Shown here: piece after piece, positions 17,092-55,997 of the stretch | How the letters are laid out: every line of letters starts with the position of its first letter | Numbering within the stretch: the first letter of the stretch is position 1 | Sequence record: OL770310 | From: Escherichia phage PSa2 | DNA length: 64,000 bases | Reading direction: 5' to 3' (one strand) | Position numbers and translations under genes: made by a program | Notes under the pieces: generated by a model | Databases searched by the model: none | Seen by the model: only the letters and a program-made list of their open reading frames with translations | Told to the model about the DNA's origin: nothing

Positions 17092-17120
17092 ATTATACAG
17101 AATTTTAAAGCTAAAAGCAA
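17092..17120 (-). promoter_or_regulatory. sigma70 early promoter (TTGCTT-17-TGTATAAT on minus strand)
   Basis: -10 complement at 17092-17097, -35 complement at 17115-17120, 17-bp spacer. Confidence 0.6.
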
Positions 17121-17137
17121 CTGAATTTTTTAATTAC

Positions 17138-17569
17138 TTACCAATCGTTAACGAAACCTGAGAACTCAGAAGCAAATACTAGCTCAAATTTCTCAGCAAT
17201 TTCAGGGTGATCTTTACAGATCAGTTCAATGCACTTCTCAGGTTCCATACCATCTTCCTCAGGATCACCGTAATACTTGTCCCAAAGATCATCAGGAATA
17301 ACTTGCTCAGCTAGATCTTGGAAGTTCACTAACTGATAGCGTGGAGTATCCTCATTAATAAAGATCTCATGCAATTCCTCAGATACTTCTCCCTTATAAT
17401 CGGAAATTAGCAGAGCATTGCAAGCAAAACATTCCCACATCATCAAACGCTCAGAAATCGGGTTCGATTTGTCTTGAACATAGGACTGAAAGACTGCCTT
17501 AAAAGTAGCTTTAACTTGCTCAAACTTATCTGCTGTTGCGATTAAAAGTGCTTTATCAATCTTTTGCAT
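17138..17569 (-). CDS. hypothetical protein
   Basis: 143-aa ORF. Confidence 0.55.
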   Translation of the reverse strand: MQKIDKALLIATADKFEQVKATFKAVFQSYVQDKSNPISERLMMWECFACNALLISDYKGEVSEELHEIFINEDTPRYQLVNFQDLAEQVIPDDLWDKYYGDPEEDGMEPEKCIELICKDHPEIAEKFELVFASEFSGFVNDW

Positions 17570-17599
17570 TTTGATTCCTTCTCATCAATTTATAAAGTA

Positions 17600-17627
17600 A
17601 TTATACAGAAAACTAAGCATTTTAGCA
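17600..17627 (-). promoter_or_regulatory. sigma70 early promoter (TTGCTA-17-TGTATAAT)
   Basis: same architecture as promoter family. Confidence 0.55.
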
Positions 17628-17730
17628 AATGAAGTTTTAAAATAAAAGGCCTAAGCCTAGGCCCGTAAAGAAAGAGATAAGAACTACTATCCCTATTGCT
17701 ATAAATATCTCACGAGCCATGCCATCAAAA

Positions 17731-18321
17731 TCAAACATTGATATCTCCCCTCAATACCGCTGCCACATCTTCATCAATTTGGAGTACTTCACCAGTAGTA
17801 CAGTTAACCACTTTATCATAGCTTGTGAATTTGCCAGACACAATATCCTCTAGAGGAATAGGAGTCTTGCTCATCTCAAAAGAGACGTTGATATAACGTG
17901 GGTCACGCACAGAATTAGTATGCACATGTCCGTGAATGTTTAGCCTACCACGAAGTTCTGCTTCATGCAATGGACAATGTGACAGCCAAAACTTCTTGCC
18001 ACCACCTGTTTGCTTACCTAGAGCCTGAATATCATCATAAACGTCTATAAGATCTTTAATATGCAGACCCTGACGCTCAGCATCGTGGTTTCCCATAATT
18101 AGTTGGTTAGGCACGTTGTGGATAACCGACTTCAACTTGGCCAACCCTTCTCGCCCCACGGCACTATCTCCTAGCAGCACAAGTTTTGTACGCTTGCCAA
18201 TGTGCTTGGACAAAGTATCTAGGATATACTCATCGTGCTCTTTCATGTTCTTAAACCAGGGGCGAAAACGAAGAATCCCTGGGTGGTCTAAGTGGAGTTC
18301 ACTCCAGAATTTAACTTTCAT
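17731..18321 (-). CDS. calcineurin-like metallophosphoesterase
   Basis: 196-aa ORF; motifs LGDSA, GNHD, HGHVH. Confidence 0.6.
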   Translation of the reverse strand: MKVKFWSELHLDHPGILRFRPWFKNMKEHDEYILDTLSKHIGKRTKLVLLGDSAVGREGLAKLKSVIHNVPNQLIMGNHDAERQGLHIKDLIDVYDDIQALGKQTGGGKKFWLSHCPLHEAELRGRLNIHGHVHTNSVRDPRYINVSFEMSKTPIPLEDIVSGKFTSYDKVVNCTTGEVLQIDEDVAAVLRGDINV

Positions 18322-18527: not shown

Positions 18528-18826
18528 TAATACCTCTTTTTAGTTAACCAATACATATTGTGCTCATATTGATAGCGATTCCACTTATCTTTAAATTCAT
18601 TCATATGATTAAAGATATGTTTGGCTAAATCGTTAGCATTCTCTAGTGTTTTAGCGTAAAGTTTTACTGGTTCGCCATTTTCATATGAGATAATAATAAA
18701 GAGCCTATTATCTTCTTCAAATGCGGGGGATATAGAACGTATCCCCTTAACATCAATAAAGCCAGCCCAGCCTAGAGACTCAAAGTTACAATACTTAGTA
18801 ATTGTTGGTATAATAGGTTTTTCCAT
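18527..18826 (-). CDS. hypothetical protein
   Basis: 99-aa ORF. Confidence 0.5.
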   Translation of the reverse strand: MEKPIIPTITKYCNFESLGWAGFIDVKGIRSISPAFEEDNRLFIIISYENGEPVKLYAKTLENANDLAKHIFNHMNEFKDKWNRYQYEHNMYWLTKKRY

Positions 18827-19704
18827 TACAGAATCCTCTGTACACCACAGCTATCATTTTTATCTGTGGTAAATGTCATGATCTTACCGGCTTCATCATT
18901 AACTTGCGCAACCGTCAACTGCCCGTTGAAAACACCGCCAGTATCGAGATAAACACGGTTCTTGTACAGAATTGGGTAAGGAACACCAGTGTGGCCATGG
19001 AATACGAAATCTACACTTTCAACTTCTGGCACTTCCACAGTCAGTTCATCTTTAAATCCTGCATAACGCTGGAAATAGGGGTGCTCTGCACCTTGCTTAG
19101 ACAGATGAAAACCAATTTCCTGAATTACATCACGATCCCATAGATACGGCTCAATGTAATAGCTAGGATGATCATTAGGATCATTTTCACTTGCAGCGAT
19201 ATGATCAATAATATCATCCCAATTAGGTGTATGTACATCGAATCCAGCATCTTTATACTGAAACGGTATTCCGCCATGAACAACACCGTATTTCTTGCCA
19301 CGATGGAGTACGGTCATGAATACAGGCATTTTAGCTGCCATATCTTCTGCGATACCTTTAATTGTATCGGTATCCAGATCATTCATTGCCCACATCCCTC
19401 CATTATACATCCAGTTGGCATAGTCACCCGCAATCATAAACTGATCATGGTTGCCACGAACGCTACGGAAGCGTGGGTTATATAAGAATTTGGCTAGGAC
19501 CTGTAAGTTCTGCGGGCCACGGTCAATTAAGTCGCCAACACAGACAACATAGTCACGCTTTTCTTTATATCCTGCTAGTTTAAGAGCATCTTCCAGCATA
19601 TCATTACAGCCGTGAATATCTCCTACGAAGAACAGGTTAACATCGTCTGGTACTACTAACATTTCGTGCAGGTTAAATTCTTTTTTCATTATCGAGTCAT
19701 CCAA
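18826..19704 (-). CDS. Ser/Thr protein phosphatase (PPP-family metallophosphatase)
   Basis: 292-aa ORF; GDIHGC, GDLIDRG, GNHD, HGHTG motifs. Confidence 0.7.
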   Translation of the reverse strand: MDDSIMKKEFNLHEMLVVPDDVNLFFVGDIHGCNDMLEDALKLAGYKEKRDYVVCVGDLIDRGPQNLQVLAKFLYNPRFRSVRGNHDQFMIAGDYANWMYNGGMWAMNDLDTDTIKGIAEDMAAKMPVFMTVLHRGKKYGVVHGGIPFQYKDAGFDVHTPNWDDIIDHIAASENDPNDHPSYYIEPYLWDRDVIQEIGFHLSKQGAEHPYFQRYAGFKDELTVEVPEVESVDFVFHGHTGVPYPILYKNRVYLDTGGVFNGQLTVAQVNDEAGKIMTFTTDKNDSCGVQRIL

Positions 19705-20069: not shown

Positions 20070-20100
20070 TGTGATACTCCCCTCATCAATTTATACATAT

Positions 20101-20130
20101 ATTATATCAAAATTTTTAGCAGAAAGCAAG
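20101..20130 (-). promoter_or_regulatory. sigma70 early promoter
   Basis: promoter family motif. Confidence 0.5.
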
Positions 20131-20132
20131 TA

Positions 20133-20164
20133 ATAAAAAACCCAGATCAGCTAAGATCTGGGTT
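20133..20164 (-). terminator. intrinsic terminator AACCCAGATC-AGCTAA-GATCTGGGTT with U6 tail on minus strand
   Basis: 10-bp stem, A6 on plus immediately 5' of hairpin. Confidence 0.65.
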
Positions 20165-20865: not shown

Positions 20866-20898
20866 TTGTGAAACTCCTCTGATTCAATTTATACAAAT

Positions 20899-20928
20899 AT
20901 TATATAAAAATTTCAGCGGAAAGTCAAC
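20899..20928 (-). promoter_or_regulatory. sigma70 early promoter (TTGACT-17-TATAAT)
   Basis: promoter family motif. Confidence 0.5.
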
Positions 20929-20940
20929 TACTTTTTTATA

Positions 20941-22499: not shown

Positions 22500-22607
22500 T
22501 TGTAACCTCCTCTAACCATTACCATTATACTAATTCTAGAGGAAAATTACAACGTGTTTTTAAAGATCACTTCTGGAGCATAATTTTTTGTCGTTGTCAA
22601 GAAGAAT

Positions 22608-22647
22608 TTTAGGCAAAAGAAAAGCCAGAGTCGTTAAACTCTGGCTT
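22608..22647 (-). terminator. intrinsic terminator AGCCAGAGT-CGTTAA-ACTCTGGCT with U-rich tail
   Basis: read directly downstream of ClpP-like gene. Confidence 0.55.
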
Positions 22648-24373: not shown

Positions 24374-24753
24374 GCTAATCTTTCCTCGAACTCTTTATTC
24401 TGCTTTTTAGCAATTAATGTTACCAATCCAGGCTTTGCAGCGATAACATCTTGACGACTAAGAGCTTTATCTAACTGCTTAATCTTTTTGTCTAGATCTG
24501 CTTGCGAAATATTATTCATTGTGAAATACTGGTTCATTCGAGTCTCACGAAGTTCACTCTCAGTTTTCACTTTATTAAGATAAGTCTCTAGAGTGGAGAT
24601 CTTTTTAGTCGCAACTGCAAGATCTCCCGCTAAAGTTTCAACCTTATTTACTAAATGATAAGCACCGAATCCGATACCTATCGCAAGACCAGCTCCCAGG
24701 ATATACCACTTACCTTGCCATATTCCTGAAAGAAGTTTTTGTATCAAATCCAT
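24304..24753 (-). CDS. N-terminal TM plus coiled-coil protein (i-spanin candidate)
   Basis: 149-aa ORF; TM helix YILGAGLAIGIGFGAY then helical region. Confidence 0.45.
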   Translation of the reverse strand: MDLIQKLLSGIWQGKWYILGAGLAIGIGFGAYHLVNKVETLAGDLAVATKKISTLETYLNKVKTESELRETRMNQYFTMNNISQADLDKKIKQLDKALSRQDVIAAKPGLVTLIAKKQNKEFEERLACLTGNLEYCSQPQSQSQAVQKK

Positions 24754-25408: not shown

Positions 25409-25437
25409 AAATTATCCTTTTGCCTCAATCTATAAAC

Positions 25438-25468
25438 ATATTATATAATACTTGTGGCGTCTGAGCAA
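25438..25468 (-). promoter_or_regulatory. sigma70 early promoter
   Basis: promoter family motif. Confidence 0.45.
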
Positions 25469-25554
25469 CTGAAATTTTATTACAAAAAATAGCCCAGCCT
25501 GCAATTTTGCGACTGGGCTTTGTCATTATTATTCTTGCTAGGAGGTGATTATCA

Positions 25555-26596: not shown

Positions 26597-27047
26597 GTTC
26601 TGCTCTCCGACGTTTGCGTTCTTTCATCATGTAAGCTGCTACAACTTCATGATAGTAGTCATTAATGTTATCTTCTGGCAAGAAATGTTTAATTGTTTCT
26701 AGCTGACAGATAACACGGTAAAGATGTTTATTTGGCAAACATAATTTCATGCCCATAACAAATCCAGAGAAACCTGGAACACTGAACGTGGGTTGGGCTT
26801 CTACGTTGCCCTCGGGATTGATACTAAGTTCAATCGAGATACCCATTTTCATACTATAAAGCTGACAACCCTCACCATTACCGAATTTTGACCAAACAGT
26901 GAAATCCTCATCGATTTGATCTTGGATTTCTTCGACTGCAAGTTTAATTCTAGGGTCTAAATTACTCATCTTCACCTTCAAAGCCGCAGTCATAACGGCA
27001 AGTAAAAGAATCAGAACTATTAGTACGTTGAGTAGTGATTTCACCAC
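26550..27047 (-). CDS. hypothetical protein
   Basis: 165-aa ORF. Confidence 0.5.
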   Translation of the reverse strand: MVKSLLNVLIVLILLLAVMTAALKVKMSNLDPRIKLAVEEIQDQIDEDFTVWSKFGNGEGCQLYSMKMGISIELSINPEGNVEAQPTFSVPGFSGFVMGMKLCLPNKHLYRVICQLETIKHFLPEDNINDYYHEVVAAYMMKERKRRRAERERAKSQQSSTDSSN

Positions 27048-27327: not shown

Positions 27328-27553
27328 ACCACCAAGAACAAGAATCGCACAAGAAAATTTCTGTTTTCTCTATTGCCTGTCCAAGCAGTTCGTCTGCTTC
27401 ATCTTCGGTGATTTTCAAACTACAAACATCAGCAACACGTTTAACAATCATTCTGCCTGCTTCATGATAGGACATACAAGTCCCAACAACATCATGCTCA
27501 AGTACATGAACAGCACAGTCTAAGCGAGTTTTCATTTCAAAGCTCCTTATCAA
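27254..27553 (-). CDS. Cys-rich small protein
   Basis: 99-aa ORF. Confidence 0.45.
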   Translation of the reverse strand: MIRSFEMKTRLDCAVHVLEHDVVGTCMSYHEAGRMIVKRVADVCSLKITEDEADELLGQAIEKTEIFLCDSCSWWCEAHEHSFNDYDVCRDCKEDDEDE

Positions 27554-27564
27554 TTTATATAAAT

Positions 27565-27593
27565 ATTATACCAAGAAAAGAGGGTTTTAGCAA
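27565..27593 (-). promoter_or_regulatory. sigma70 early promoter
   Basis: promoter family motif. Confidence 0.55.
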
Positions 27594-27610
27594 ATGAATT
27601 ATTTACGAAA

Positions 27611-29208: not shown

Positions 29209-29284
29209 TGGTAGTTAGTAGTGGATTTGAACCACTGTAGTCGCTCCGTATGAAGGAGGTGCATAACCTCTCTGCCAACTAACT
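29209..29284 (-). tRNA. tRNA, anticodon CAU (Met / fMet / Ile2 type)
   Basis: hand-folded: acceptor 7/7 Watson-Crick, T-arm AGTGG-TTCAAAT-CCACT, anticodon loop UUCAUAC, CCA encoded. Confidence 0.55.
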
Positions 29285-29380
29285 ATTATGTTTTACTAGA
29301 CTAAGTAAGTATTCTTTATACTCTTTAGACCAATTAGCTTTTTTAAACTTTCCTGGACGCATAGTCTTACTTCCTAAATT

Positions 29381-29457
29381 TGGTACTCCAGGAGGGATTT
29401 AAACCCCCGATCTCTCGGTTATCAGCCGAGTGCTTTAGATCGCTAAGCTACCGAAGC
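29381..29457 (-). tRNA. tRNA-Ile (GAU)
   Basis: hand-folded: anticodon arm CUCGG-CUGAUAA-CCGAG; acceptor stem has 3 G-U pairs. Confidence 0.5.
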
Positions 29458-29458
29458 A

Positions 29459-29665
29459 TTAACATTTAATTACAGAACGTTTACCATTTCTAGGCGCACC
29501 TGGAAGTCGTGCACGTTCTGCCATTCTTCGCTTAATCTTTGGGATATTTTCTAGTGTTTGTTCTTCAGGCTTAATACCTGAAACACTACACCACTGATTA
29601 CCATCCCATGCGGTAATGATCATAACACCATTACCCATAATCTTTTCTGTGAAAGTAATTCTCAT
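29459..29665 (-). CDS. hypothetical protein
   Basis: 68-aa ORF. Confidence 0.4.
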   Translation of the reverse strand: MRITFTEKIMGNGVMIITAWDGNQWCSVSGIKPEEQTLENIPKIKRRMAERARLPGAPRNGKRSVIKC

Positions 29666-29958
29666 TATAACAACTCGTCTAAGTAAGAGGTATACTGGTA
29701 TTTAGCTTCACCAGTTTTATCTACTTCGACTTCTGTTCTAGGTACTTTTCGTACCAGACCGTGAATCATCTTATATTGAATAGATTTAGATGGTTCGTGA
29801 TCTTTAGGAAAGACCTGCTTAACTGTAACTACTTTAAATCCCTCACGTGGTGTTAGTACAACAACTTGATCACCTTCTTTGATTTTCCAAGACTCAGGAA
29901 ATTCATAAGTGTAGCGTTGACCACCGGTAAGGAATATAACAGAAAGATAACGTTTCAT
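29665..29958 (-). CDS. hypothetical protein
   Basis: 97-aa ORF. Confidence 0.45.
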   Translation of the reverse strand: MKRYLSVIFLTGGQRYTYEFPESWKIKEGDQVVVLTPREGFKVVTVKQVFPKDHEPSKSIQYKMIHGLVRKVPRTEVEVDKTGEAKYQYTSYLDELL

Positions 29959-29988
29959 TTGGTTTTCCTCTCATTAATTTATACAAAC

Positions 29989-30018
29989 ATTATATCAAGA
30001 AATAAGAGGAAAGGCAAA
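29989..30018 (-). promoter_or_regulatory. sigma70 early promoter
   Basis: promoter family motif. Confidence 0.5.
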
Positions 30019-30032
30019 TGAATTTTTAAATT

Positions 30033-30107
30033 TGGTGCTCCCACCAGGAATCGAACCCGGTTCAGATGCTTACAAGGCAACTGCATCGCCAGCAATGCTT
30101 TAGGAGC
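30033..30107 (-). tRNA. tRNA-Thr (UGU)
   Basis: hand-folded: T-arm CCGGG-TTCGATT-CCTGG, loop CUUGUAA. Confidence 0.55.
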
Positions 30108-30274
30108 AATAAACCCGTTATTTCAACGGGATTTCTTTTTCAAATACAGGAGACTTATCAGACATTACTGTCATAGCCAACTGCTGTAGAAATTCGAATG
30201 AGAGTTTTAAACGTTCTTCGCCCAACTCAACCTCAACGCGCTTCATTCGTTTATCTACCTTTATCTTTAGATTA

Positions 30275-30496
30275 TCAGCCATCTTCGGGTTCTCTTTGCT
30301 CAGCTATTGCTAGCCAGTCTGGTAAAAGAAACTTAGTACGAAATTCTTCATATGTTTCTTCCGGATGAAAGCTATAGCCTTGCTTTTCATCATTTAATAA
30401 AACCGAACCGTCTTCCTGCTCATAAGCTCGGTATGTTTCACCAATAATTAAAACTCGCCTATTAGGGTTTTTATTACGAAACTCAAAAACGTCCAT
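30275..30496 (-). CDS. hypothetical protein
   Basis: 73-aa ORF. Confidence 0.4.
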   Translation of the reverse strand: MDVFEFRNKNPNRRVLIIGETYRAYEQEDGSVLLNDEKQGYSFHPEETYEEFRTKFLLPDWLAIAEQREPEDG

Positions 30497-30511
30497 AACG
30501 TTTCCTTAAAT

Positions 30512-30586
30512 TGGTGCGGGATACGAGAGTCGAACTCGTGTCTACTGGTTGGAAGCCAGTTATTCTAGCCACTGAACTAATCACGC
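30512..30586 (-). tRNA. tRNA-Gly (UCC)
   Basis: hand-folded: anticodon arm ACUGG-CUUCCAA-CCAGU; 3' half resembles bacterial tRNA-Gly. Confidence 0.6.
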
Positions 30587-30592
30587 ATAAAT

Positions 30593-30668
30593 TGGCTGGA
30601 GAAGGAGGAATCGAACCTACCATTAACGGAGTCAAAGGCCGTTGTGCTAACCGTTACACTACTCTCCA
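30593..30668 (-). tRNA. tRNA-Gln (UUG)
   Basis: hand-folded: loop CUUUGAC, 3' end CCAGCCA as in bacterial tRNA-Gln. Confidence 0.55.
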
Positions 30669-30674
30669 AGTATT

Positions 30675-30750
30675 TGGCTGGGATGCCACGGATCGAACGT
30701 GGAACCTTCGGAGTCAGAGGCCGACGATCTGCCAATTGATCTACATCCCA
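30675..30750 (-). tRNA. tRNA-Gln (CUG)
   Basis: hand-folded: acceptor 7/7, loop CUCUGAC. Confidence 0.55.
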
Positions 30751-30758
30751 ATAATTTT

Positions 30759-30959
30759 TTATTCTTCAGGAACCGTGGCTATTGGATCTGGTTCTTCTAG
30801 ACGTTTACCATTATGATCGACACGAATAATGCCACAACCTTCACAGATTACAACAGCACCATAGCCTTCTTTAACTTCGGCTTCTGTAATCAGACCAGAT
30901 AAATCACCAGTATCTTTGCCCCACATATCAATAGAGCATTCTTTGCAGAAATCAGCCAT
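30759..30959 (-). CDS. zinc-ribbon-like small protein (CxxC...CxxC)
   Basis: 66-aa ORF. Confidence 0.4.
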   Translation of the reverse strand: MADFCKECSIDMWGKDTGDLSGLITEAEVKEGYGAVVICEGCGIIRVDHNGKRLEEPDPIATVPEE

Positions 30960-30983
30960 ATTTTATTTCCTATTTAAGTTAAT

Positions 30984-31058
30984 TGGTGCATCCTCAGGGA
31001 ATCGAACCCCGATCGTAAAGTTCGTAGCTTTACATTCTTTCCGTTGAAATAAGGACGC
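30984..31058 (-). tRNA. tRNA-Arg (ACG)
   Basis: hand-folded: anticodon arm UAAAG-CUACGAA-CUUUA. Confidence 0.6.
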
Positions 31059-31064
31059 AATATT

Positions 31065-31141
31065 TGGGGTGGCTAGTGGAATTCGAATCCACATAGGCCT
31101 GATTCACAATCAGGATCATTAACCAATTATGATATAGCCAC
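31065..31141 (-). tRNA. tRNA-His (GUG)
   Basis: hand-folded: anticodon arm CCUGA-UUGUGAA-UCAGG, discriminator C. Confidence 0.6.
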
Positions 31142-31706: not shown

Positions 31707-31724
31707 AAGGTTTTCCTTATTAGT

Positions 31725-41776: not shown

Positions 41777-41787
41777 ATATTTCCTTA

Positions 41788-41988: not shown

Positions 41989-42014
41989 TTTATTTTCCTA
42001 GCAGTTAATAAAAT

Positions 42015-42089
42015 TGGCCGAGGTGACAGGATTCGAACCTGCATAAAGGAATTTAGAAGACTCCTGCCTATCCCTTAGACTACACCCCG
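42015..42089 (-). tRNA. tRNA-Arg (UCU)
   Basis: hand-folded: D-arm GUCU/AGGC, anticodon arm GGAGU-CUUCUAA-AUUCC. Confidence 0.55.
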
Positions 42090-42099
42090 TTTAGGTATT

Positions 42100-42900
42100 T
42101 TTAAGAACTCTCGTAAAAGTCCTTAAAGATACCCGACGGTAGGTAGGGTCAGCCCCCTCAGATTAAGCTCTGCAGCCCTTCCGTCAGACAATATCTTCCA
42201 GTTTAAGTCAAGGTGACTTTGTGGTTATGTTCTCCGTATGTGAAGAACTCGGTTAGGCTTAGGTCATGACTCCCAGCCTACTGCTGCCGCTCAACAGGAA
42301 TTATCGCGAATTACCTGTACTATTGGGCACCATTAGTGACATCTCTCATGTCAGCGTTTCCCACTCTCATATTCACGCGGTCTGTTAGAATCGCACCTCC
42401 GATTTTCGATGCGAAGCTGGATGCCTAGTCTCAGGTTAAACGGGGTACACACTAGGCAGTGATCCCGAGTTCCGAGTTTGGTTGAGGCCGTCAGGTTTCC
42501 TCGTGGTTTAGCTGTTTCGATTCTAACCTAATACTGATCAGGCGGCGTACCTCCTGAACCGTCATAGTATGTACTCCAGCAGCGAATGCTTATCCGGTAT
42601 AAGCCCGAGTTATCCGATTCTTTCCAGAAGGAGCAGTGAAGCTCAATGTCAGCCTGTGAGCATCTGGCAGTGTTATCACATAAGTCAGTTCGACACCCCA
42701 CTAACATAAACTAGAGAAGAGTTTACGAGATTTCGGGACAGCTCCCGAGTTTTCCACAGATTTTCAGTTCCCTATCAATAGCAATAAGCGTTAGCTCGTA
42801 GCCTCTCTCAGAGTACTTACTAGTCTCCAACTCACCGACTCTATTCAGTGGAATAGCTATCCTACTAGGAATCACTAAACTCACTCAGCGTAATCGGCTC
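42100..42900 (-). other. ORF-free, GC-richer 0.8-kb transcribed leader (candidate structured RNA)
   Basis: no ORF of 60 aa or more on either strand; between promoter at 42914-42942 and tRNA-Arg. Confidence 0.35.
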
Positions 42901-42913
42901 GCTGTTCTCTAAT

Positions 42914-42942
42914 TTATGAATCTATTATACAGAATTTTAAAG
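42914..42942 (-). promoter_or_regulatory. sigma70 early promoter
   Basis: promoter family motif. Confidence 0.55.
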
Positions 42943-42960
42943 CATTTAGCAAATCAATTT

Positions 42961-43404
42961 TTAATTAAATTCGCCAGCAACCTGAGCAGCAATGCCACCG
43001 TCGTAACGACCAGGAAACTCTTCCTTAATCGCTTTCATCAGCATACCCTTTGTAATCCCAGGATTCAGCTTAACTAATTCTGCGAAGTATTTGCGAATCT
43101 CAGAATCAGATAGCTGAGGAGGCAAATACTGCTGTAACCATTTGTTCAGTATATATTCATACTGAGCAGACTGCAAGCTATAATTATCAAGGTCTTGACC
43201 GTGAAGTTTAGCTTTTGTCTGATTAATGCTTTTCAGTTGAGCTTTTAGATAAGATACAAACTGTTCAGAAGTAATGAAGTCTTTATCAACACGCTGAAGA
43301 TCTCCGATTATGGTTTGGTAGCTTTTAGCTACTTCTTTATCAGAACCATCAACCTTAGATTCCTGCAAAGCCCTACGCAAAACATCTAGAATATTCTCTT
43401 CCAT
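42961..43404 (-). CDS. GatB/YqeY-domain-like protein
   Basis: 147-aa ORF; C-terminal pattern resembles YqeY family. Confidence 0.45.
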   Translation of the reverse strand: MEENILDVLRRALQESKVDGSDKEVAKSYQTIIGDLQRVDKDFITSEQFVSYLKAQLKSINQTKAKLHGQDLDNYSLQSAQYEYILNKWLQQYLPPQLSDSEIRKYFAELVKLNPGITKGMLMKAIKEEFPGRYDGGIAAQVAGEFN

Positions 43405-43574: not shown

Positions 43575-43606
43575 ATTTCGCTTCCTCTCATTAATTTATG
43601 AAAGTA

Positions 43607-43634
43607 TTATACAGAAATTTAAGGCTTTAAGCAA
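43607..43634 (-). promoter_or_regulatory. sigma70 early promoter
   Basis: promoter family motif. Confidence 0.55.
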
Positions 43635-43642
43635 TCGAATTT

Positions 43643-44110
43643 TTAAGTTTTCTTAACCACAGGCTTGTAGAACGTATGGCCTTGAATCTTCGTTGTTTTC
43701 TTAAACTTCTTTGTCCAGTACGGTTTATCTTTACCACTATGGAAGTATAACGCTCCATGTGTTGGATCTTGTGGTAAATCAACGTAGTATATCACTCTAG
43801 CTAAATTCTTAGCAACTTGCCAAGCCTCATCGGTTTTATCAACTTTTGGTCTCTTGGCCACCCAAGAGAACTGGTTAGACTGATATACTACTTTACAGTA
43901 AGAATCAGGAAAAGTACCAGAGTTAACACGGTTTTTAGTAACCTGTGCAACTGCGATCATTCCTTTAGTGCCCTCACCTCGTGCTTCGAAGTAGATATTT
44001 TTTGCAATGCAATCAATCTGCTTTGAGTCGTAGGTCGCATGACTATTGAAGCTATAGGTTAGGGCAGCTATTAAAAGCAAAGCTGCCTTCATTTTATTTA
44101 CTCCGGCCAA
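43643..44110 (-). CDS. secreted cell-wall hydrolase, SleB/Hydrolase_2-like
   Basis: 155-aa ORF; signal peptide; NIYFEARGEG and VAQVTKNR motifs. Confidence 0.5.
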   Translation of the reverse strand: MAGVNKMKAALLLIAALTYSFNSHATYDSKQIDCIAKNIYFEARGEGTKGMIAVAQVTKNRVNSGTFPDSYCKVVYQSNQFSWVAKRPKVDKTDEAWQVAKNLARVIYYVDLPQDPTHGALYFHSGKDKPYWTKKFKKTTKIQGHTFYKPVVKKT

Positions 44111-44415
44111 TCGTACTCAATACGATTAGGGCTTTCTTGATACCCTTCGTCTAAGAGATCATTACGCATGGTCTCTTTAGCTACTGGGTTCGAGGTTACT
44201 AGTACCACTTTCTTGGGTCTCTGACCAAATTCTAGGAGTAAACGAAGAATTTGATAACCTTCCATACCCTCTACAGCCAGATCGTTATCCATATAAACGA
44301 AATGACCTGTGGTATCGGTTTTATTCAGAAACTCAACAGCGGCTTCGGGGGTTCTAATGATAATGTCCATTCCATGAAGGTTACGCACATCATCAATCAG
44401 AATATGAAAAATCAT
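44098..44415 (-). CDS. hypothetical protein
   Basis: 105-aa ORF. Confidence 0.45.
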   Translation of the reverse strand: MIFHILIDDVRNLHGMDIIIRTPEAAVEFLNKTDTTGHFVYMDNDLAVEGMEGYQILRLLLEFGQRPKKVVLVTSNPVAKETMRNDLLDEGYQESPNRIEYDWPE

Positions 44416-44445
44416 AATAGCCTCGTCTCATCAATTTAAAAATAT

Positions 44446-44473
44446 ATTATACAGAAAACTAAACTAATTAGCA
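44446..44473 (-). promoter_or_regulatory. sigma70 early promoter
   Basis: promoter family motif. Confidence 0.55.
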
Positions 44474-44858
44474 AATACATTTTTAAATTGAGAGACTAGT
44501 AAACCGATAAACAGCCTAGAGGCGCCACAGGCCATATCTTATGAGCCATGTACCTTTGATCTAGGGTTTGAATCATCAACGAATACTTTGCATCTTTTAG
44601 CTTTAGAAGGTTAGAAGTTTGAGTGCTTTTAACTTTTCAGCTTTCATACTTGAGCGTTGATCTTTGAAGTTGTGTTGGTACTACCAACGACCTTTTGTTT
44701 TTACGTGTCAGATTAAATGTCTGATGTAATAAACATAATCTCCAATAGATTATACTTTATAGTATGGTCAGCGGTCTTATTTAACCTCGTATTTCAACCG
44801 CTGCTGCGAGGTAAGATGCTTGGGCTTTCGTCTACCGATTTACTAGTCTTTTAAATTA

Positions 44859-45733: not shown

Positions 45734-45773
45734 AATTATTTTCCTTTTGTTGTTCTCTCAAATTTATGAATAT

Positions 45774-45802
45774 ATTATACAGAATTTTGGAGCTGAAAGC
45801 AA
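45774..45802 (-). promoter_or_regulatory. sigma70 early promoter
   Basis: promoter family motif. Confidence 0.55.
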
Positions 45803-45803
45803 A

Positions 45804-46505
45804 TCAAATTTTGATTTTTTCGATCATGATGGCTACACAATAACTTTCAACTAAAGCATCGAATGCGGGATCATGTTTCACTGGATAGATTCCATAACGA
45901 ATGGTATCCATCTTTTCCATTTTAGCTTTTGCCCAGCTAGCACCTTCGGCTTCTAGATCTTTATAGCTATAACCAGCTTGCATCCACTGATTACGGAAAG
46001 ATCGAACGTTACCTAAGTTCCAGAATTTCCACGGAACTATTTCTTCATGGGTTCCGGCATGGAACGTATTTGCAGAGTAGATTGTCATATCAAACTCTGG
46101 GCCATTGCCGTAATACAGAGCATTATCTCCTAGAGACAATTCCATAATGTTCTGAGCCATAGAGAAGGCAGCATAATTAGAGCCTACGTCATTAGTGCAG
46201 TGATGCTTACCATCACGGAAGGCAATCAGTTTAGGATTACGACCATTTAGAGCCTCCATAATATGGAGCGCAGATGGACTGTTTTTAGCTTGATCCATCC
46301 AGAATGCAATAGTAGAGGCAGTTACCTTAGCACCCGCATTAAGCTGATCTTGAACGTCTAGAGTAACGAATACCAGATCAGGATCTTTATCAATTCCGTG
46401 CATCGCTACAAAAGCGAAAGAAGGCATTGCAATATGAGTAGTACCGCAATTTCCTGGAGTACCTAGAGATTCAATGTCCAGCATACCAAAGGGCTTGAAT
46501 TTCAT
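45804..46505 (-). CDS. hypothetical protein (possible DEDD-type exonuclease)
   Basis: 233-aa ORF; N-terminal MLDIESLG resembles exonuclease motif I. Confidence 0.4.
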   Translation of the reverse strand: MKFKPFGMLDIESLGTPGNCGTTHIAMPSFAFVAMHGIDKDPDLVFVTLDVQDQLNAGAKVTASTIAFWMDQAKNSPSALHIMEALNGRNPKLIAFRDGKHHCTNDVGSNYAAFSMAQNIMELSLGDNALYYGNGPEFDMTIYSANTFHAGTHEEIVPWKFWNLGNVRSFRNQWMQAGYSYKDLEAEGASWAKAKMEKMDTIRYGIYPVKHDPAFDALVESYCVAIMIEKIKI

Positions 46506-46789: not shown

Positions 46790-47059
46790 TTACTTGCCAA
46801 GCAGTTTAAGGATATTTTCCTTAATAGTTTGAGCAGATTTTTCACTCTTATTGGTTTCAGCCAGTTTCAGAGCGAGTTCTTCCTGCTGTTTCTGAATATC
46901 AGCAGCAGTTTTCTGATCAGCTTCAATACGAGCTTGAAGTTCGTCAGTAATAGTGGTAAAGGAAGCAACGATTTCAGTAACGGAACGTGGTTTCTTAGAG
47001 AACATAAAATATCCTTGATTAGTCAGAGAAAGAGTTAGTATATGGGGCTTTCGCCCCAT
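46790..47059 (-). CDS. coiled-coil small protein
   Basis: track ORF begins at TTG 47062; ATG at 47059. Confidence 0.45.
   Translation of the reverse strand: MGRKPHILTLSLTNQGYFMFSKKPRSVTEIVASFTTITDELQARIEADQKTAADIQKQQEELALKLAETNKSEKSAQTIKENILKLLGK
47043..47058 (-). terminator. intercistronic hairpin TGGGGC-TTTC-GCCCCA
   Basis: overlaps start region of 46790-47059. Confidence 0.35.
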
Positions 47060-47590: not shown

Positions 47591-47628
47591 TATTTGTTTT
47601 CCTTTTTGTTGATCAATTTATGAGATAT

Positions 47629-47657
47629 ATTATACGAAATTTTGAAGCGTTTAGCAA
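47629..47657 (-). promoter_or_regulatory. sigma70 early promoter
   Basis: promoter family motif. Confidence 0.55.
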
Positions 47658-47673
47658 ATGAATTTTTTAAAAA

Positions 47674-47952: not shown

Positions 47953-47978
47953 AAAGCCCTCCTCACTTTCAATACGAA

Positions 47979-48008
47979 TATTATACTAAATTCGAGGGCT
48001 TTAAGCAA
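47979..48008 (-). promoter_or_regulatory. sigma70 early promoter
   Basis: promoter family motif. Confidence 0.5.
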
Positions 48009-48028
48009 GTGAATTTTTAAATTATTTA

Positions 48029-49355: not shown

Positions 49356-49386
49356 TATTAAATCCTTCTGTCAAATTAGAAGTATA

Positions 49387-49415
49387 TTATATTTGAATTT
49401 CACTCAGTAAGCAAA
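49387..49415 (-). promoter_or_regulatory. sigma70 early promoter
   Basis: -10 complement at 49387-49392, -35 complement at 49410-49415, 17-bp spacer. Confidence 0.55.
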
Positions 49416-49431
49416 TGAAATTTAAATATAA

Positions 49432-49810: not shown

Positions 49811-50665
49811 CTACACCGTAAATGGATATGCAATAGCAGGATGGTGTTCATAGCCACGAACAGTAAAATCATCCTTACTTACCCACGTTAATACATCATC
49901 CAAAGTTCTAATATTTGGATTGATTTCTAAAGTAGGAGGTGCAAAAGGTTCACGATCGAATTGCTTGTGCTCCATCAGAACATTATACTGATCTTCATAG
50001 ATATGAAGATTGATAATCTTTTGACGAGCAATACCTGGCTTAAGACCTGTAATCTGTGCCATAATAGCTAGAAGTGCATAGCATTGTACCATATTAAATA
50101 CTTGGCCCAGCAAGAAATCATTAGACCTCTGGAAAGAGTTTAGGTATAGTGTATCACCTAAAATAGAGAATTGATGGGTATGCATACACGGACGTAGGCA
50201 TCCTTTACGAAATTCCCCAGGGTTCCAAAAAGTTAAAATTTCTCCACGATCGTCAATCCCTCTTTTCAAATTATGATAGACTTTGGCTAACTGATCAAAT
50301 ACCATACCATCAGAATTAGTCCAATGACGTCCTTGAACACCATAGACTCGTCCCATATCATCTTCGCCTTTACGGAATGGATTACCTAGCCAGGCAATAT
50401 TTTCATTTGCATTAGCATTCCATGTATTAACACCAATAGCGCGGAATTGTGCTGCTGAGTCGTACCCACGGAGATATCCGATCATTTCCATTATTGCTTG
50501 TTTAGCAAATGCTTTACGAGTAGTTACTAGCGGCAGTTCTCCTGCTCCTACGTTAAAGGTAAAGTCTGCATCAATAATGGTTAGGCAACGAACCCCCGTT
50601 CTAGGATTCGTTACCCATACACCCTCTTCTAGAATACGTTTTCCAGTTTCAATATATTGCTTCAT
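49811..50665 (-). CDS. thyA: thymidylate synthase
   Basis: 284-aa ORF collinear with E. coli ThyA incl. catalytic Cys region [10 protein letters not shown]. Confidence 0.85.
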
Positions 50666-52337: not shown

Positions 52338-52367
52338 TGATTTTCCTCTTTCTCACTATTTCAGGAA

Positions 52368-52397
52368 TATTATAGCAAATCTGGTAGCGATTAGCAA
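52368..52397 (-). promoter_or_regulatory. sigma70 early promoter
   Basis: promoter family motif. Confidence 0.5.
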
Positions 52398-52404
52398 GTA
52401 AAAT

Positions 52405-52440
52405 TTCAAAGAAAAAGGAGACCCGAAGATCTCCTTGTTT
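52405..52440 (-). terminator. intrinsic terminator AAGGAGA-N8-TCTCCTT flanked by A/T runs (bidirectional)
   Basis: read directly downstream of nrdA. Confidence 0.6.
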
Positions 52441-52443
52441 TTA

Positions 52444-54834
52444 TTACAGGTTACAACCACCTGATGCACAACCTGCTGCTTCTTCACCAGCTCCACCACC
52501 ATTTTCAGTGTTGAAGTTAGCGTAGTACCAAGTTTTCCAACCGTACTTAACAGCAGTCATGAAATCACGAACTACTACTGGACCAGGAATGATTTCATTC
52601 TCAAACTTGGTGTAGTCATAGTACATATTTGTACTGATAGACTGACTGAAAAATTTCTGCATGGTTGCTACCCATTTGATCCACTCGATACGATCTACAT
52701 CATAAGCCAGTTTATAGCTCATTAATGTATCCCAATTAGTTGCACCTGGAGCAATTGCAATTACTTTATTCACTGCACTACCCTTGATAGATACGATCTT
52801 ACGAGGCGGTTCGATAGAGTTAGTAACACCTAGCAGTACAGAGGAACTTTCACCTGGCATCTGAGCAGTCAGAACAGAGTTACGCATACCATATTTCAGA
52901 ATATCTGCACGCAGAGATTCCCAATCCATTTCTAGACCTACAGTTACCAGTTCATCAACAGTTTTCTTATACGTGTCGATTACCAGAGTTCCTTGTGAAG
53001 GCTTAGTACGATTAAACCAGTCACATGCACCCTGTTCTTTGGCCAGACGTACAGAGGCTTTGTGCAGGAAGTAGGACAGCTTTTCAGCTTCACGGTGAAT
53101 CCAGTTACGTGCTTCAACACCTTCGTAAGCCAAACCTTCTGCTGCCATTGCACCTGCTGCGTTCATCAGACCAATACCAACGTTACGACGTTTCTTAGCC
53201 GTGTATTCCATAGTTGGGAATGGATAATCCTGAATCTCAATGATTGTATCAACGAATTTCAGAAGGATGTAGCAAGTTTTCTCCCATTCAGCCAGAGATT
53301 CCATGCGGCCTAGTACAACACCACCTAAGTTACACAGAGATACTTCACCAATATCTTCTGGACGCATATCGTCTAACTGATCTTGGGTTTTATACAGTTC
53401 CGTAACGTGATGGAATGGACGGGTTGGCTGAGTAATTTCAACACAAAGGTTGGTCATACGAATCGGGTCAAGGAAGTTACCATGACGGTTAGATTCACCA
53501 ATGTGATGAGCATACATACGCCCTGTTTCCATACGGATACGTAACCAAGTATCTAGGATTTCTTTTGCAGAGATTCTAGGAGCTGCTGGAATTGTTTTTC
53601 CTTCGTGGTCGATCTTTGTAAGAGATGCCACACGTTTCTCCGCTGCCACGTAGATTTCTTCAAACTTAGCCTCATCTTCACCATAAAACGCTTCATGAAC
53701 TTCTGGTGCGTAGAAGTAGGACATTAGCGTAATATCTTCGTTTTTCAGGTAACGTTTTAACAGAAGGTTGTTAAAGCTCAGAGAATAATCCATCTTATCG
53801 ATTTTATTCTCGTCTGTAGCACGTTGCTGCTTAACCTGCATCAACTGAATGATTTCAGGATCGAAGTATGGATAAGACACAGTAGCAGAACCGCCACGGG
53901 TTTGCTGAGTGTTAGCTTTTACTGAACGGTCAATGTGTCGATAATATGGCAGTTTTCCGGAATGCGGGAATGCCCCATTTCGCACCGGATCAGCAATTGA
54001 TCGGCTTTCAAGATGATACCCGATTCCCGCTCTGGCTGCGACCATTTTGAAGACGATATGCTCGGCTGTGTCGATTGAATCGAGGGTATCAGTACTATCA
54101 ACAAGACAACAAGAAGCAAAACCGCGGTCGCTGCTCCTAAGACCCACGAGAGGTGGAGTCGGCACGTTGATTTTATGGAGTGACATTGCGTTGTAGAGGT
54201 CGATTGCATCGAGAATTGTCCAGTTAGGTTGAGATAACATCGCCATTGCCATACCCATATAGGCAAACTGCGGGGTTTCATAAATTTCACCAGTTGCAAT
54301 ATTACGACGAGAATACTTGTCGAAGAACTGTTTCAGTCCACCACTGGTGAATAAACGATCACGATCATGATCAATAACTTGGTTCAGAGCGTCAAACTGA
54401 TCATCGCTAATCCATGCACTCATGTCTTCCCAAGCGCCTGCACGAACCATATGATCGTGGAAGAAACGCAGAGAAGGAGGTTCAAAGGAATCATATAGGC
54501 GTTTACGCATCTGCGCAAGACGTAATTCCTTTGCTACAGTATCATATGCTGGGTTGTCTTTGATAAGACCTTCAGCGGCTTTAATTAACACATCTTGGAG
54601 TGTATCGGAGTCTACAACACCTTTGGGTAGATTTTTCAGGGCAGCCATAACTACGGCAGACCAACTTACGTCAGTATCTTTACATGCCCATGCAGCCCAA
54701 TCATTGAGTTTTTCAGGAGCAAAGTCCTGAACAGTACCGTCACGTTTAATTACTTTTTCGATGCGATGGCTCATTTGGCTTTCCTTTTTGTAGTTATCAG
54801 GATTTAGGAAATATTCTACTTTGTTTTGGGTCAT
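52444..54834 (-). CDS. nrdA: ribonucleotide reductase large subunit (class Ia)
   Basis: 796-aa ORF; N-terminal ATP-cone (VIKRDGTVQDF), RNR core. Confidence 0.85.
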   Translation of the reverse strand: MTQNKVEYFLNPDNYKKESQMSHRIEKVIKRDGTVQDFAPEKLNDWAAWACKDTDVSWSAVVMAALKNLPKGVVDSDTLQDVLIKAAEGLIKDNPAYDTVAKELRLAQMRKRLYDSFEPPSLRFFHDHMVRAGAWEDMSAWISDDQFDALNQVIDHDRDRLFTSGGLKQFFDKYSRRNIATGEIYETPQFAYMGMAMAMLSQPNWTILDAIDLYNAMSLHKINVPTPPLVGLRSSDRGFASCCLVDSTDTLDSIDTAEHIVFKMVAARAGIGYHLESRSIADPVRNGAFPHSGKLPYYRHIDRSVKANTQQTRGGSATVSYPYFDPEIIQLMQVKQQRATDENKIDKMDYSLSFNNLLLKRYLKNEDITLMSYFYAPEVHEAFYGEDEAKFEEIYVAAEKRVASLTKIDHEGKTIPAAPRISAKEILDTWLRIRMETGRMYAHHIGESNRHGNFLDPIRMTNLCVEITQPTRPFHHVTELYKTQDQLDDMRPEDIGEVSLCNLGGVVLGRMESLAEWEKTCYILLKFVDTIIEIQDYPFPTMEYTAKKRRNVGIGLMNAAGAMAAEGLAYEGVEARNWIHREAEKLSYFLHKASVRLAKEQGACDWFNRTKPSQGTLVIDTYKKTVDELVTVGLEMDWESLRADILKYGMRNSVLTAQMPGESSSVLLGVTNSIEPPRKIVSIKGSAVNKVIAIAPGATNWDTLMSYKLAYDVDRIEWIKWVATMQKFFSQSISTNMYYDYTKFENEIIPGPVVVRDFMTAVKYGWKTWYYANFNTENGGGAGEEAAGCASGGCNL

Positions 54835-54897
54835 TTTGCAAGTACAATTTTACAGATAAAAAGAGCCCGGATATTTTCATACCCAGGCTCGTCTGTC

Positions 54898-55140
54898 TTA
54901 CCATTTAAGTTTATCGGCTTGATCAAGTAACTGCTGTCGTATTTCTCGGTTAAAGAGAATATCTACAGAAGTACTTAGTTCATTATAGTTGAAAGGCCGA
55001 TTTGGATTAGAGGCTACAATTTTCCACGCTAGGGTAGTCTTAGGACTTTCTTCCCCTTCCTTACGTGTAATCATATTAGCAGCACTCAATGAAGTACGGT
55101 GGATCTTAGTTTTGCGGTGCAGATGTACGACGTTTCCCAT
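54898..55140 (-). CDS. hypothetical protein
   Basis: 80-aa ORF. Confidence 0.4.
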   Translation of the reverse strand: MGNVVHLHRKTKIHRTSLSAANMITRKEGEESPKTTLAWKIVASNPNRPFNYNELSTSVDILFNREIRQQLLDQADKLKW

Positions 55141-55141
55141 A

Positions 55142-55903
55142 TTACACCTTCCCCATATCCTTAAAGATATCGTAGAATGCTTTAGACTCTGGTGAGCGAA
55201 CGTTGTCGATCAGTTCGATCATAGAGAAAGGAGAGTTTTCGTACTTCTCATAGACTTCCATAAGAAGTGCTAGACCTGAATCACCCTTGATGTCTTTCTG
55301 AGCTATATCCCCACAGATAATTAAACGACAATCTTGTCCTACACGAGTCAGGAGACAGATCATTGCTTCAACGGAGATATTCTGAGCTTCATCGACAATA
55401 ACATAGGAGTTGTTGAAAGTTCGGCCACGGGCATGTTCGATAGCCAGGAATTTGATTTTCTGACGTTCGACATATCCTTTGTAGGCGTGATCACCGATTG
55501 CCCATTTCATGCCATCGGCTATTGGTTCCAACCAAGGCTCTAGCTTTTCTGCTAGATCACCTGGGAGCATACCAAGAGATTTACCTAGAGGTTCGTTCGG
55601 ACGCACGAGGATCACTTGCTCAATATCTGAGTGAATGTCTACGAGTTCCTGAGCTGCAATAACGGATGGAATAAAGGTTTTACCAGTACCTGGTTCACCA
55701 ATACCCACAGTCACTGTGTTGTTCTTGATCATATTGATATATGATTTTTGCTCACGGTTTTTACCAACTAGGGATTTAGCAACTGGATTGGCGTAATCAC
55801 CAGAGAAATCTGCTTGAATTACGTTACTCTCATACTTGTTGCCACGCTTTCTTGAACCATTGCGGTTCTCTCTTTTTTGACGTGCTTTTCCCATAAATAA
55901 CAC
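55142..55903 (-). CDS. phoH: PhoH-like ATPase
   Basis: 253-aa ORF; Walker A GEPGTGKT, PhoH-like core. Confidence 0.8.
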   Translation of the reverse strand: MLFMGKARQKRENRNGSRKRGNKYESNVIQADFSGDYANPVAKSLVGKNREQKSYINMIKNNTVTVGIGEPGTGKTFIPSVIAAQELVDIHSDIEQVILVRPNEPLGKSLGMLPGDLAEKLEPWLEPIADGMKWAIGDHAYKGYVERQKIKFLAIEHARGRTFNNSYVIVDEAQNISVEAMICLLTRVGQDCRLIICGDIAQKDIKGDSGLALLMEVYEKYENSPFSMIELIDNVRSPESKAFYDIFKDMGKV

Positions 55904-55967
55904 TCCTATAGTGTACTTCGCTAACAGAGGATCAACAAAAAGATCTTGTTTATCAACTTACAAATAT

Positions 55968-55997
55968 ATTATACCAATATATGCGGGAGAAAGCAAC
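55968..55997 (-). promoter_or_regulatory. sigma70 early promoter for phoH operon
   Basis: -10 complement at 55968-55973, -35 complement at 55991-55996. Confidence 0.55.

Follow-up and report, generated by a model that had tools for sequence, protein, structure and literature searches.

The early promoters of bacteriophage T5 have been textbook promoters of Escherichia coli RNA polymerase since the 1980s, and one of them, PN25, is the "T5 promoter" of the pQE-type vectors. Nineteen T5 promoters were first found in vitro (Gentz & Bujard 1985, J Bacteriol 164:70), and 11 were detected by primer extension (PMC7472727). The 1985 work is reported to have characterised the early promoters PN25, PN26, PK28a/b, PH207, PD/E33, P11-P16 and P31A/B. 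All three temporal classes of T5 promoters are used by the host sigma-70 polymerase (Klimuk et al. 2020, PMC7472727); according to the same study P15A and Ppol behave as early promoters in T5 primer extension and every known T5 early promoter carries an ATATT discriminator, and the legend to its Fig. S5 marks an upstream (UP) element. For the T5-like phage AKFV33, 32 promoters have been described with the consensus TTGCTw, a 17-18 bp spacer and TATAATA, flanked by AAAAATT at -43 and TAAATT at +1 (Niu et al. 2012, PMC3326045). Here we analyse a window of 64,000 nucleotides, the whole stretch taken from the sequence record of Escherichia phage PSa2 (OL770310), in which a promoter cassette of the same kind recurs 26 times. 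We put at about 0.94 the probability that these elements are early-class promoters of a T5-like phage, used by unmodified host sigma-70 RNA polymerase after entry of the complete genome.

The window is the left part of a T5-like genome, with collinearity to T5 beginning at T5 base 49. Its 30-50 kb segment shares 97% identity with Salmonella phages PHZ191, Sw2 and 3-29, of which Sw2 is classified in the genus Epseptimavirus of the Demerecviridae, and from this sequence comparison we identify the source as a T5-like Salmonella/E. coli phage of Epseptimavirus. The genome has a G+C content of 39%. The terminal repeat and the pre-early genes, with an A1 homologue at 1837-3504, are followed by a leftward early block and then by the start of a rightward early block; transcription diverges near 56 kb, and the GC skew shifts at the same place. 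The leftward block includes 29 tRNA genes at 29209-42089, all on the minus strand and mixed with small open reading frames (ORFs), and at least seven promoters of the family feed them. Close relatives such as Sw2 carry no promoter annotation.

When up to two mismatches are allowed, a strict motif, TTGCTW-N15-TGTATAAT, occurs 25 times in the window, against 2.37 +/- 1.69 expected from 100 dinucleotide-preserving shuffles, in which the largest count was eight. The minus strand from 17092 to 55996 accounts for 21 of these matches, 12 of them exact. The family itself was delimited with a weight matrix that covers -47 to +8; the sites were aligned by their -35 hexamers, and the spacer could vary from 16 to 18 bp. 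This matrix finds 26 sites, with scores from 32.9 to 66.3 bits, and none in 20 Markov shuffles. The scores are bimodal, and because the interval between 8 and 18 bits holds only two weak matches (5846 on the plus strand and 54841 on the minus strand), the family is discrete and sharply bounded. Twenty-four members lie on the minus strand (17092-55996) and two on the plus strand (58163 and 61438), the latter pair past the divergence point near 56 kb; the matrix finds no member in the first 17 kb of the window, that is, in the pre-early genes and the start of the early region. Members at 20927, 30017, 36806 and 37178 are missed by the strict motif. Conversely, a strict match at 38946-38974 (minus strand), within a pnuC-like ORF, was rejected as a false positive with less than 8 bits on the full matrix, and those at 56042 (plus), 56109 (minus) and 63839 (minus) also score below 8 bits and hence stand outside the family.

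In a genome this rich in A and T, chance matches to a promoter motif are to be weighed, the more so as a generic sigma-70 consensus scan found no excess over shuffled sequence (55 against 55.1, and 52 against 52.2). That scan is uninformative for the family, because TTGCTT shares three of six positions with TTGACA and so fails the scan's four-of-six rule. Against chance stand the strict-motif count, which no shuffle attained, the matrix matches that are absent from shuffles and the bimodal scores. The other possibility, that the elements serve a phage-encoded polymerase or sigma factor, is at odds with a -10 element that is the perfect sigma-70 hexamer at the optimal 17-bp spacing, and with the T5 orthologues described below, which are promoters of the E. 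coli polymerase, as are all T5 classes (PMC7472727). Together, the statistics and T5 orthology exclude both explanations, to which we give practically no credence.

The T5 reference (GenBank AY543070) carries 75-bp "promoter" features across the region, many with classical names. Applied to T5, the matrix built from the window sites alone gives 29 matches in 1-72 kb and three in 72-121.7 kb, all 32 of which fall on annotated promoters within the early regions. They include PF30, P11, P13a/b, P14a/b, P15a/b/c, P16-17, PD/E33, PH207, PN25, PN26, PK28a, P31A/B, the lpp promoter, the promoter upstream of the DNA polymerase gene and unnamed annotated promoters, while the pre-early promoters PD/E20 and PH22 and the late promoters PG25 and PJ5 of T5 are not matched. 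For several of the matched promoters (PN25, PN26, PK28a, PH207 and PD/E33) experimental characterisation exists. In T5, PN25 reads TTGCTT-tcaggaaaatttttctg-TATAAT-agattcATAAATTTGAGAGAGGAG and is a typical member of the family; this is the sequence known from expression vectors. Its orthologue in the present phage lies just past the right end of the window.

Orthology was assessed by BLAST of 500 bp on either side of each window site against T5. In alignments that span the site, the distance to a T5 family promoter is at most 21 bp for 21 of the 26 members, and 49414 additionally falls on an annotated T5 promoter (members are named here by the position at which the -35 hexamer starts). Across 23 pairs, identity between window and T5 is 100% in the -10 hexamer, 97% in the -35 hexamer, 94% from +1 to +9, 88% in the A-tract, 86% in the discriminator, 80% in the spacer and 68% further upstream. 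As judged from these sequence comparisons, the -35, the -10, the +1 to +9 and the A-tract blocks are under purifying selection.

The first-pass annotation of this DNA, made from the letters alone, had described about 24 near-identical leftward elements between 17092 and about 55997, seen on the plus strand as ATTATACAGAA...AAGCAA, had ascribed them to T5-type early promoters for host polymerase and had proposed a weight-matrix search as the check. That search bears out their number, extent and plus-strand appearance, and the assignment to T5-type early promoters agrees with the exclusive matching of annotated T5 promoters, the orthology of 21 sites and the absence of pre-early and late matches. 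The copies are not near-identical: mean pairwise identity from -47 to +25 (72 nt) is 57.5%, against 26% for random 72-mers, which makes them a strong consensus family instead. Conservation beyond the hexamers, in blocks at -45 to -37 and -6 to +9, had been missed.

The whole cassette extends over some 55-80 bp. At its upstream end, the -45 to -37 block reads AAAA(A/T)TT(C/T)A; 17-19 of the 21 seed sites have A at -45 to -42, with T after it at -40/-39. The A4-5 tract at -45 to -41 has a sequence compatible with the proximal subsite of a UP element, which Estrem and colleagues (1999) reportedly defined as AAAAAARNR at -46 to -38, its A-tract at -46 to -41 being contacted by the C-terminal domain of the polymerase alpha subunit. 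The -35 hexamer, TTGCT(T/A) at -35 to -30, has invariant G, C and T among the 21 seed sites; in the full family, TTGCT(T/A/C) is found at 21 of 26 sites and TTGACT, TTGCCT or TTGCAG at the others. The -10 hexamer is TATAAT at all 26. It follows an A/T-rich and loosely conserved spacer (..GC(T/C)T.AAA.TTCTG) of 17 bp at 25 sites and 18 bp at one. The first-pass annotation had described an extended -10 element here, which holds for a part of the family: nine sites (20129, 27593, 30017, 32955, 36806, 37178, 52397, 55996 and 61438) have TG in the canonical TGn register at -15/-14, but in 13 the TG directly abuts TATAAT at -14/-13, as in (C/A)TGTATAAT, and four have no TG, so that TGTATAAT is not the canonical TGnTATAAT. 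Among the sites that the sigma-70 scan lists, its TG flag is "no" at four with abutting TG (17628, 34345, 42952 and 44474) and also at 47657, which is without TG.

Downstream of TATAAT, ATATT at -6 to -2 is followed by (T/C)A at -1/+1 and then by TAAATTGA to +9, giving a class-specific block from -6 to +9 of ATATT(T/C)ATAAATTGA. Transcription is predicted to start 7 nt past the -10 hexamer, at the A in (T/C)ATAAATT, so that the initial transcribed region, ATAAATTGA, is stereotyped and A/U-rich. Where the transcription unit codes for protein, a GAGAGGA ribosome-binding site follows, and at 17 sites the distance from the predicted +1 to the start codon is 21-27 nt. The consensus on this side of the -10, AT(A)TT(T/C)ATAAATT, agrees with those of Klimuk et al. 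(2020) and Niu et al. (2012).

Five members (34345, 38414, 36806, 32955 and 42952) have no ribosome-binding site and lead into RNA genes; downstream of the predicted start, tRNA-Pro follows after 26 nt at 34345, tRNA-Ser after 8 nt at 38414 and tRNA-Tyr after 119 nt at 36806. ATAAATT is kept at all five of these promoters, where the Shine-Dalgarno sequence is gone, and therefore the block is a feature of the promoter or of the RNA 5' end and not a translation signal. Two other readings of the conserved sequence were rejected. The core around +1, ATTTATAAAT, is palindromic and might be taken for an operator, but the alternation of T and C at -1 breaks the palindrome in many copies. A/T-rich DNA is, moreover, often palindromic by chance. 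Nor do the elements resemble T5 nick sites (PuGCGC) or replication iterons, since they have no GCGC core and are locked in orientation and in distance to the next gene start.

How would such promoters work? Sigma region 4 would bind TTGCTW and sigma region 2 the perfect TATAAT at optimal 17-bp spacing, while the alpha C-terminal domains would contact the A-tract at -45 to -41 as a proximal UP subsite. Melting and fast promoter escape could be favoured by the A/T-rich discriminator and initial transcribed region, and the uniform short leader with GAGAGGA may then provide for efficient translation. Starts 6-8 nt after the -10 and recognition by sigma-70 are known for the T5 orthologues, and by analogy we infer early timing, high strength, the exact start sites and the polymerase contacts for the present phage. 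Several points weigh against this reading. Function is assigned to the window promoters because they are orthologous to those of T5, so that the whole assignment depends on orthology; 17628, 32955, 38414, 38778 and partly 49414 are without full-length T5 alignment, one flank having been replaced; and the -35 hexamer matches the sigma-70 consensus at three to four of six positions, with most sites lacking a canonical TGn. Given such a -35 and so few TGn, strength must have other sources: the -10 hexamer with its perfect sequence, the spacer of optimal length, the A-tract and the region downstream. The Bujard laboratory is reported to have shown this for PN25, and to have described a downstream-region effect.

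It could be that the conserved downstream block has a second role, as the cis-target by which a phage factor would turn the whole early class on or off. Such a factor might be gpT5.026, the D5 DNA-binding protein or one that acts at the RNA level on the 5' end common to the transcripts, AUAAAUUGA. T5 pre-early and late promoters do not have the block, which is kept at tRNA-driving promoters and is 86-94% conserved between orthologues, against 80% for the spacer. The sequence does not, however, require a separate factor, as an A/T-rich discriminator and initial transcribed region can influence melting and promoter escape via the polymerase alone; Kammerer and colleagues (1986) reportedly observed such a downstream-region effect at T5 promoters. 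Klimuk et al. leave the switching mechanism open and report that polymerase contacts at -5/+2, where early and late promoters mainly differ, are weakened by gpT5.026, yet the effects of this protein in vitro are weak (PMC7472727). An entry in the T5 record describes D5 as involved in the shut-off of expression. The switch role is already in the literature and is not a new reading, and we hold it to be doubtful. If the block does function in this way, it bears on the early-to-late switch of T5.

The individual members are described here in order, with their spans given from -47 to +9. The first, on the minus strand as are all those up to 56 kb, is at 17077-17132 (-35 TTGCTT at 17120; 60.3 bits), with TG abutting the -10; it is the positional orthologue of the T5 promoter at 16245-16319 and has a 5' untranslated region (5'UTR) of 26 nt before the ATG at 17059. 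The second, at 17585-17640 (TTGCTA at 17628; 55.7 bits; ATG at 17569), matches T5 PF30 in sequence, with a terminator hairpin and T-tract 18 nt upstream. The promoter at 20086-20141 (-35 at 20129; TGn; 43.4 bits) is the orthologue of T5 18550-18624 and has a terminator directly upstream, with its hairpin at 20139-20164, and that at 20884-20939 (TTGACT at 20927; 37.5 bits; ATG at 20865) is the orthologue of T5 19368-19442. Next come 25425-25480 (TTGCTC at 25468; 45.6 bits), orthologous to T5 24443-24517 and preceded by a terminator hairpin of -18.8 kcal/mol, and 27550-27605 (-35 at 27593; TGn; 53.4 bits; ATG at 27535), orthologous to T5 26722-26796.

Within this stretch, a strong terminator with an 11-bp stem (22622-22647, minus strand) is followed, ahead of the genes for holin and endolysin, by a promoter-like sequence outside the family, TTGTAA-17-TATAAT (22524-22552). 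At this position T5 has an annotated promoter, which the family matrix does not match, and on sequence grounds the lysis genes may belong to a different regulatory class.

Within the tRNA block, the promoter at 29974-30029 (TTGCCT at 30017; 38.5 bits), orthologue of P11 (T5 28651), drives an ORF at 29665-29958 and then tRNA-Ile and tRNA-Met. The counterpart of T5 P13b, at 32912-32967 (-35 at 32955; 52.1 bits), lies in a 68-bp island of homology to T5 32010-32076; no ORF with a Shine-Dalgarno sequence lies downstream, and it leads into non-coding RNA and then into tRNA-Ala 350 nt away. The orthologue of P13a (T5 32812), at 34302-34357 (-35 at 34345; 47.9 bits), drives tRNA-Pro and tRNA-Met. P14b and P14a have their orthologues at 35986-36041 (-35 at 36029; 58.5 bits; ATG at 35971) and at 36763-36818 (TTGCTC at 36806; 45.3 bits), respectively, the latter driving a tRNA-Tyr/Glu/Trp/Phe cluster. 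At 37134-37190 (-35 at 37178; 42.3 bits) the 18-bp spacer is shared with the T5 orthologue, P15c. The highest score, 66.3 bits, belongs to the counterpart of P15b at 38371-38426 (-35 at 38414), which drives tRNA-Ser and tRNA-Met and within which, at 38400, homology to T5 stops. A P15a-type copy at 38735-38790 (-35 at 38778; 52.6 bits; ATG at 38719) has a 68-bp match to T5 P15a (37794-37861) and is without a positional T5 orthologue. The positional orthologue of P15a itself (T5 37856), at 40576-40631 (-35 at 40619; 60.2 bits; ATG at 40560), drives the nadR-like and pnuC-like genes.

The orthologue of P16-17, at 42909-42964 (-35 at 42952; 63.6 bits), is followed by some 830 nt without a convincing ORF (42090-42917) and then by tRNA-Arg (42015-42089). 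This stretch corresponds to T5 "RNAX", which is annotated as a stable RNA, and ORF-free gaps elsewhere in the tRNA block (31142-31502, 32571-32947 and 34668-34880) match other T5 stable RNAs.

To the right of the tRNA genes, members orthologous to PD/E33 (43591-43646, -35 at 43634; 62.3 bits), T5 43067-43141 (44431-44486, -35 at 44474; 60.6 bits), T5 44393-44467 (45759-45814, -35 at 45802; 60.9 bits), PH207 (47614-47669, -35 at 47657; 51.7 bits) and T5 46337-46411 (47965-48020, -35 at 48008; 48.5 bits) follow one another. The member at 49371-49426 (-35 at 49414; 42.7 bits), with a terminator hairpin upstream, maps to the annotated T5 promoter at 46937-47011, which itself falls below the matrix threshold. 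The weakest of all, at 52354-52409 (-35 at 52397; TGn; 32.9 bits), drives nrdB, is orthologous to T5 50061-50135 and has a terminator hairpin upstream at 52415-52436. The last leftward member, at 55953-56008 (-35 at 55996; 55.0 bits), drives a phoH-like gene with a 5'UTR of 67 nt and is orthologous to T5 53638-53712. On the plus strand, 58151-58206 (-35 at 58163; 46.4 bits) matches the motif exactly, is orthologous to T5 55708-55782 and overlaps the nrdD terminator, with a hairpin 10 nt upstream; 61426-61481 (TTGCAG at 61438; 34.2 bits) is orthologous to T5 58999-59073, a promoter that precedes the gene for the origin-binding protein.

The divergent control region between phoH and nrdD (56089-56217) also holds two promoters outside the family. 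One, on the plus strand at 56189-56217 and ahead of nrdD (56247-58121), matches the sigma-70 consensus perfectly, TTGACA-17-TATAAT; the other, TTGCCA-17-TATAAT on the minus strand at 56109-56137, stands in tandem with the family promoter at 55996. An inverted repeat, ATCGCGTACACGGGCGCGTGAT (56089-56110), starts at the end of the -10 hexamer of the promoter at 56109-56137 and could, from its sequence, be an operator. T5 has annotated promoters at the matching places. The two weak matrix matches noted above differ in setting. That at 54841 on the minus strand (TTGCAA-17-TAGAAT, within 54813-54890; 14 bits), just after a terminator at 54863-54890 and upstream of nrdA, is a possible weak member of the family and is without T5 annotation, while that at 5846 on the plus strand (13 bits) lies in the pre-early region.

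Every member lies in a non-coding gap and points toward the next gene or tRNA. A promoter upstream of nearly every minus-strand gene cluster, as had been claimed, is too strong a statement: when the leftward block is divided by a crude gene model, about 39 non-coding gaps measure 60 bp or more, of which 21 contain a member, and three more members (36029, 38414 and 55996) stand outside the gaps that this model lists. The remaining leftward gaps hold non-family promoters, for example upstream of the holin gene, or stable-RNA genes. The description of the transcription units as short and individually driven is borne out in its first half, as successive leftward members are 351-4541 bp apart with a median of about 1.4 kb. 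As to the second half, just seven or eight of the 26 have a terminator directly upstream, with a hairpin and T-tract at 17628, 20129, 25468, 49414, 52397, 58163 and 61438 and weakly at 38778. Since upstream terminators are few, most promoters are not insulated and nested read-through transcripts are to be expected; judging from the sequence, the units are thus probably nested rather than insulated.

The fusion of some cassettes to terminators raises the question of whether they are also dispersed homology by which gene modules are shuffled among T5-like phages, in the manner of the early-promoter stem-loop (PeSL) elements documented in T4-like phages (PMC2839356, PMC4122927). First tests were strongly in favour of promoters as PeSL-like junctions: 17 of 75 ends of T5 homology fall inside elements, where 4.5 are expected, as do 28 of 208 boundaries of indels or replacements among 98 IMG/VR loci, where 11.8 are expected. 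A control with other non-coding gaps removed most of this signal. Unique breakpoints number 7.1/kb in elements, 4.8/kb in other non-coding gaps and 2.2/kb in genes, so that the enrichment of junctions is mostly generic to intergenic DNA and what is left is a weak rival. Short islands of similarity between the window and T5 (68-211 bp), which extend little beyond the promoter, occur at 32955, 34345, 38778, 40619, 42952 and 49414, but a conserved island beside a fast-evolving gene gives the same picture without recombination. In addition, mostly just one boundary per event falls in a promoter, and at about 58% identity the elements are a poor substrate for homologous recombination.

The nadR-pnuC block (38400-40557) makes the strongest individual case: it replaces T5.076 exactly between 38414 (P15b) and 40619 (P15a) and brings with it one more P15a-like promoter, at 38778, which between its -10 and the ATG is almost identical to 40619 and to T5 P15a. 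Even with this case, we consider a shuffling role of the cassettes very unlikely. The more general proposition, that the -6 to +9 block is a shared cis-signal (in the DNA or at the 5' end of the early RNA) that turns the early class off, or else that the cassettes seed module exchange among Demerecviridae as with nadR-pnuC, seems to us improbable, if slightly less so.

The early promoters are not confined to close relatives of T5. An extended core, TTGCTW-N15-TGTATAATANNTTYATAAATT, was found in 98 IMG/VR stretches, and among the matches listed all but one, T5 included, are on contigs of 95-123 kb, which is the size of T5-like genomes. The same core occurs only twice in a set of 185,579 bacterial and archaeal species, each represented by one genome. 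That these two might be mis-binned T5-like phages was considered and rejected, as one has a single isolated matrix match and the other none, which leaves chance or unrelated sequence. In Serratia phage Kamaji (ON287373.1), a more distant member of the Demerecviridae with 45% G+C and an A1 protein 61% identical, 50 kb were scanned; 13 matrix sites lie on the coding strand of the early/tRNA block, and its pre-early and structural genes within the scanned 50 kb have none except a weak opposite-strand match of 12.8 bits at 40091. In Kamaji (1-24100) the TGn register predominates over TG abutting the -10, which suggests, from these sequences, that the position of TG drifts by one base within the family.

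T5 early promoters and their consensus have long been known, so that the family is of little importance as a discovery. With the matrix, however, 26 promoters and the units that they drive can be annotated cleanly and class-specifically. This annotation shows tRNA and stable-RNA clusters with promoters of their own, and a family that reaches distant Demerecviridae such as Kamaji.

Among known promoter systems, canonical extended -10 sigma-70 promoters share TG at -15/-14 with nine of the 26 members; in contrast to typical promoters of that kind, all family members also retain a -35 element, and 13 have TG one base too close. PeSL cassettes of T4-like phages (Arbiol et al. 2010, PMC2839356; Comeau et al. 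2014, PMC4122927) are likewise dispersed, repeated early promoters that stand at the edges of variable gene modules, some of them joined to a terminator hairpin. A hairpin is present at just seven or eight of the 26 members, so that the family as a whole is not a composite of promoter and stem-loop; its breakpoint enrichment over other intergenic DNA is weak, and a recombination role would here be read from sequence alone.

The nearest systems are those of the T5-like phages themselves, and the promoter family has been described before, as a class and by its consensus. The AKFV33 set, assembled by visual inspection and a neural-network predictor without a chance test or orthology mapping, has the motif of the first-pass annotation together with the flanks found here, and its 32 promoters equal in number the matrix matches in T5. 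With respect to T5, the present phage belongs to a different genus and has a Salmonella host; its P15a orthologue drives nadR and pnuC where that of T5 drives T5.076, it has one extra promoter copy (38778), and it lacks the rightward P12 operon (T5.077-079) that is present in T5 and Sw2. In Sw2 this operon is a 1.8-kb insertion, and the deletion junction in the window (40674/40750) is just beyond the upstream edge of promoter 40619. The elements are otherwise like the T5 early promoters: the consensus is the same over about 55 bp, from the A-tract through TTGCTW, the 17-bp spacer and TATAAT to ATATT and ATAAATT, and so are the genomic positions of 21 of the 26, the orientation, the downstream genes and the restriction to the early class.

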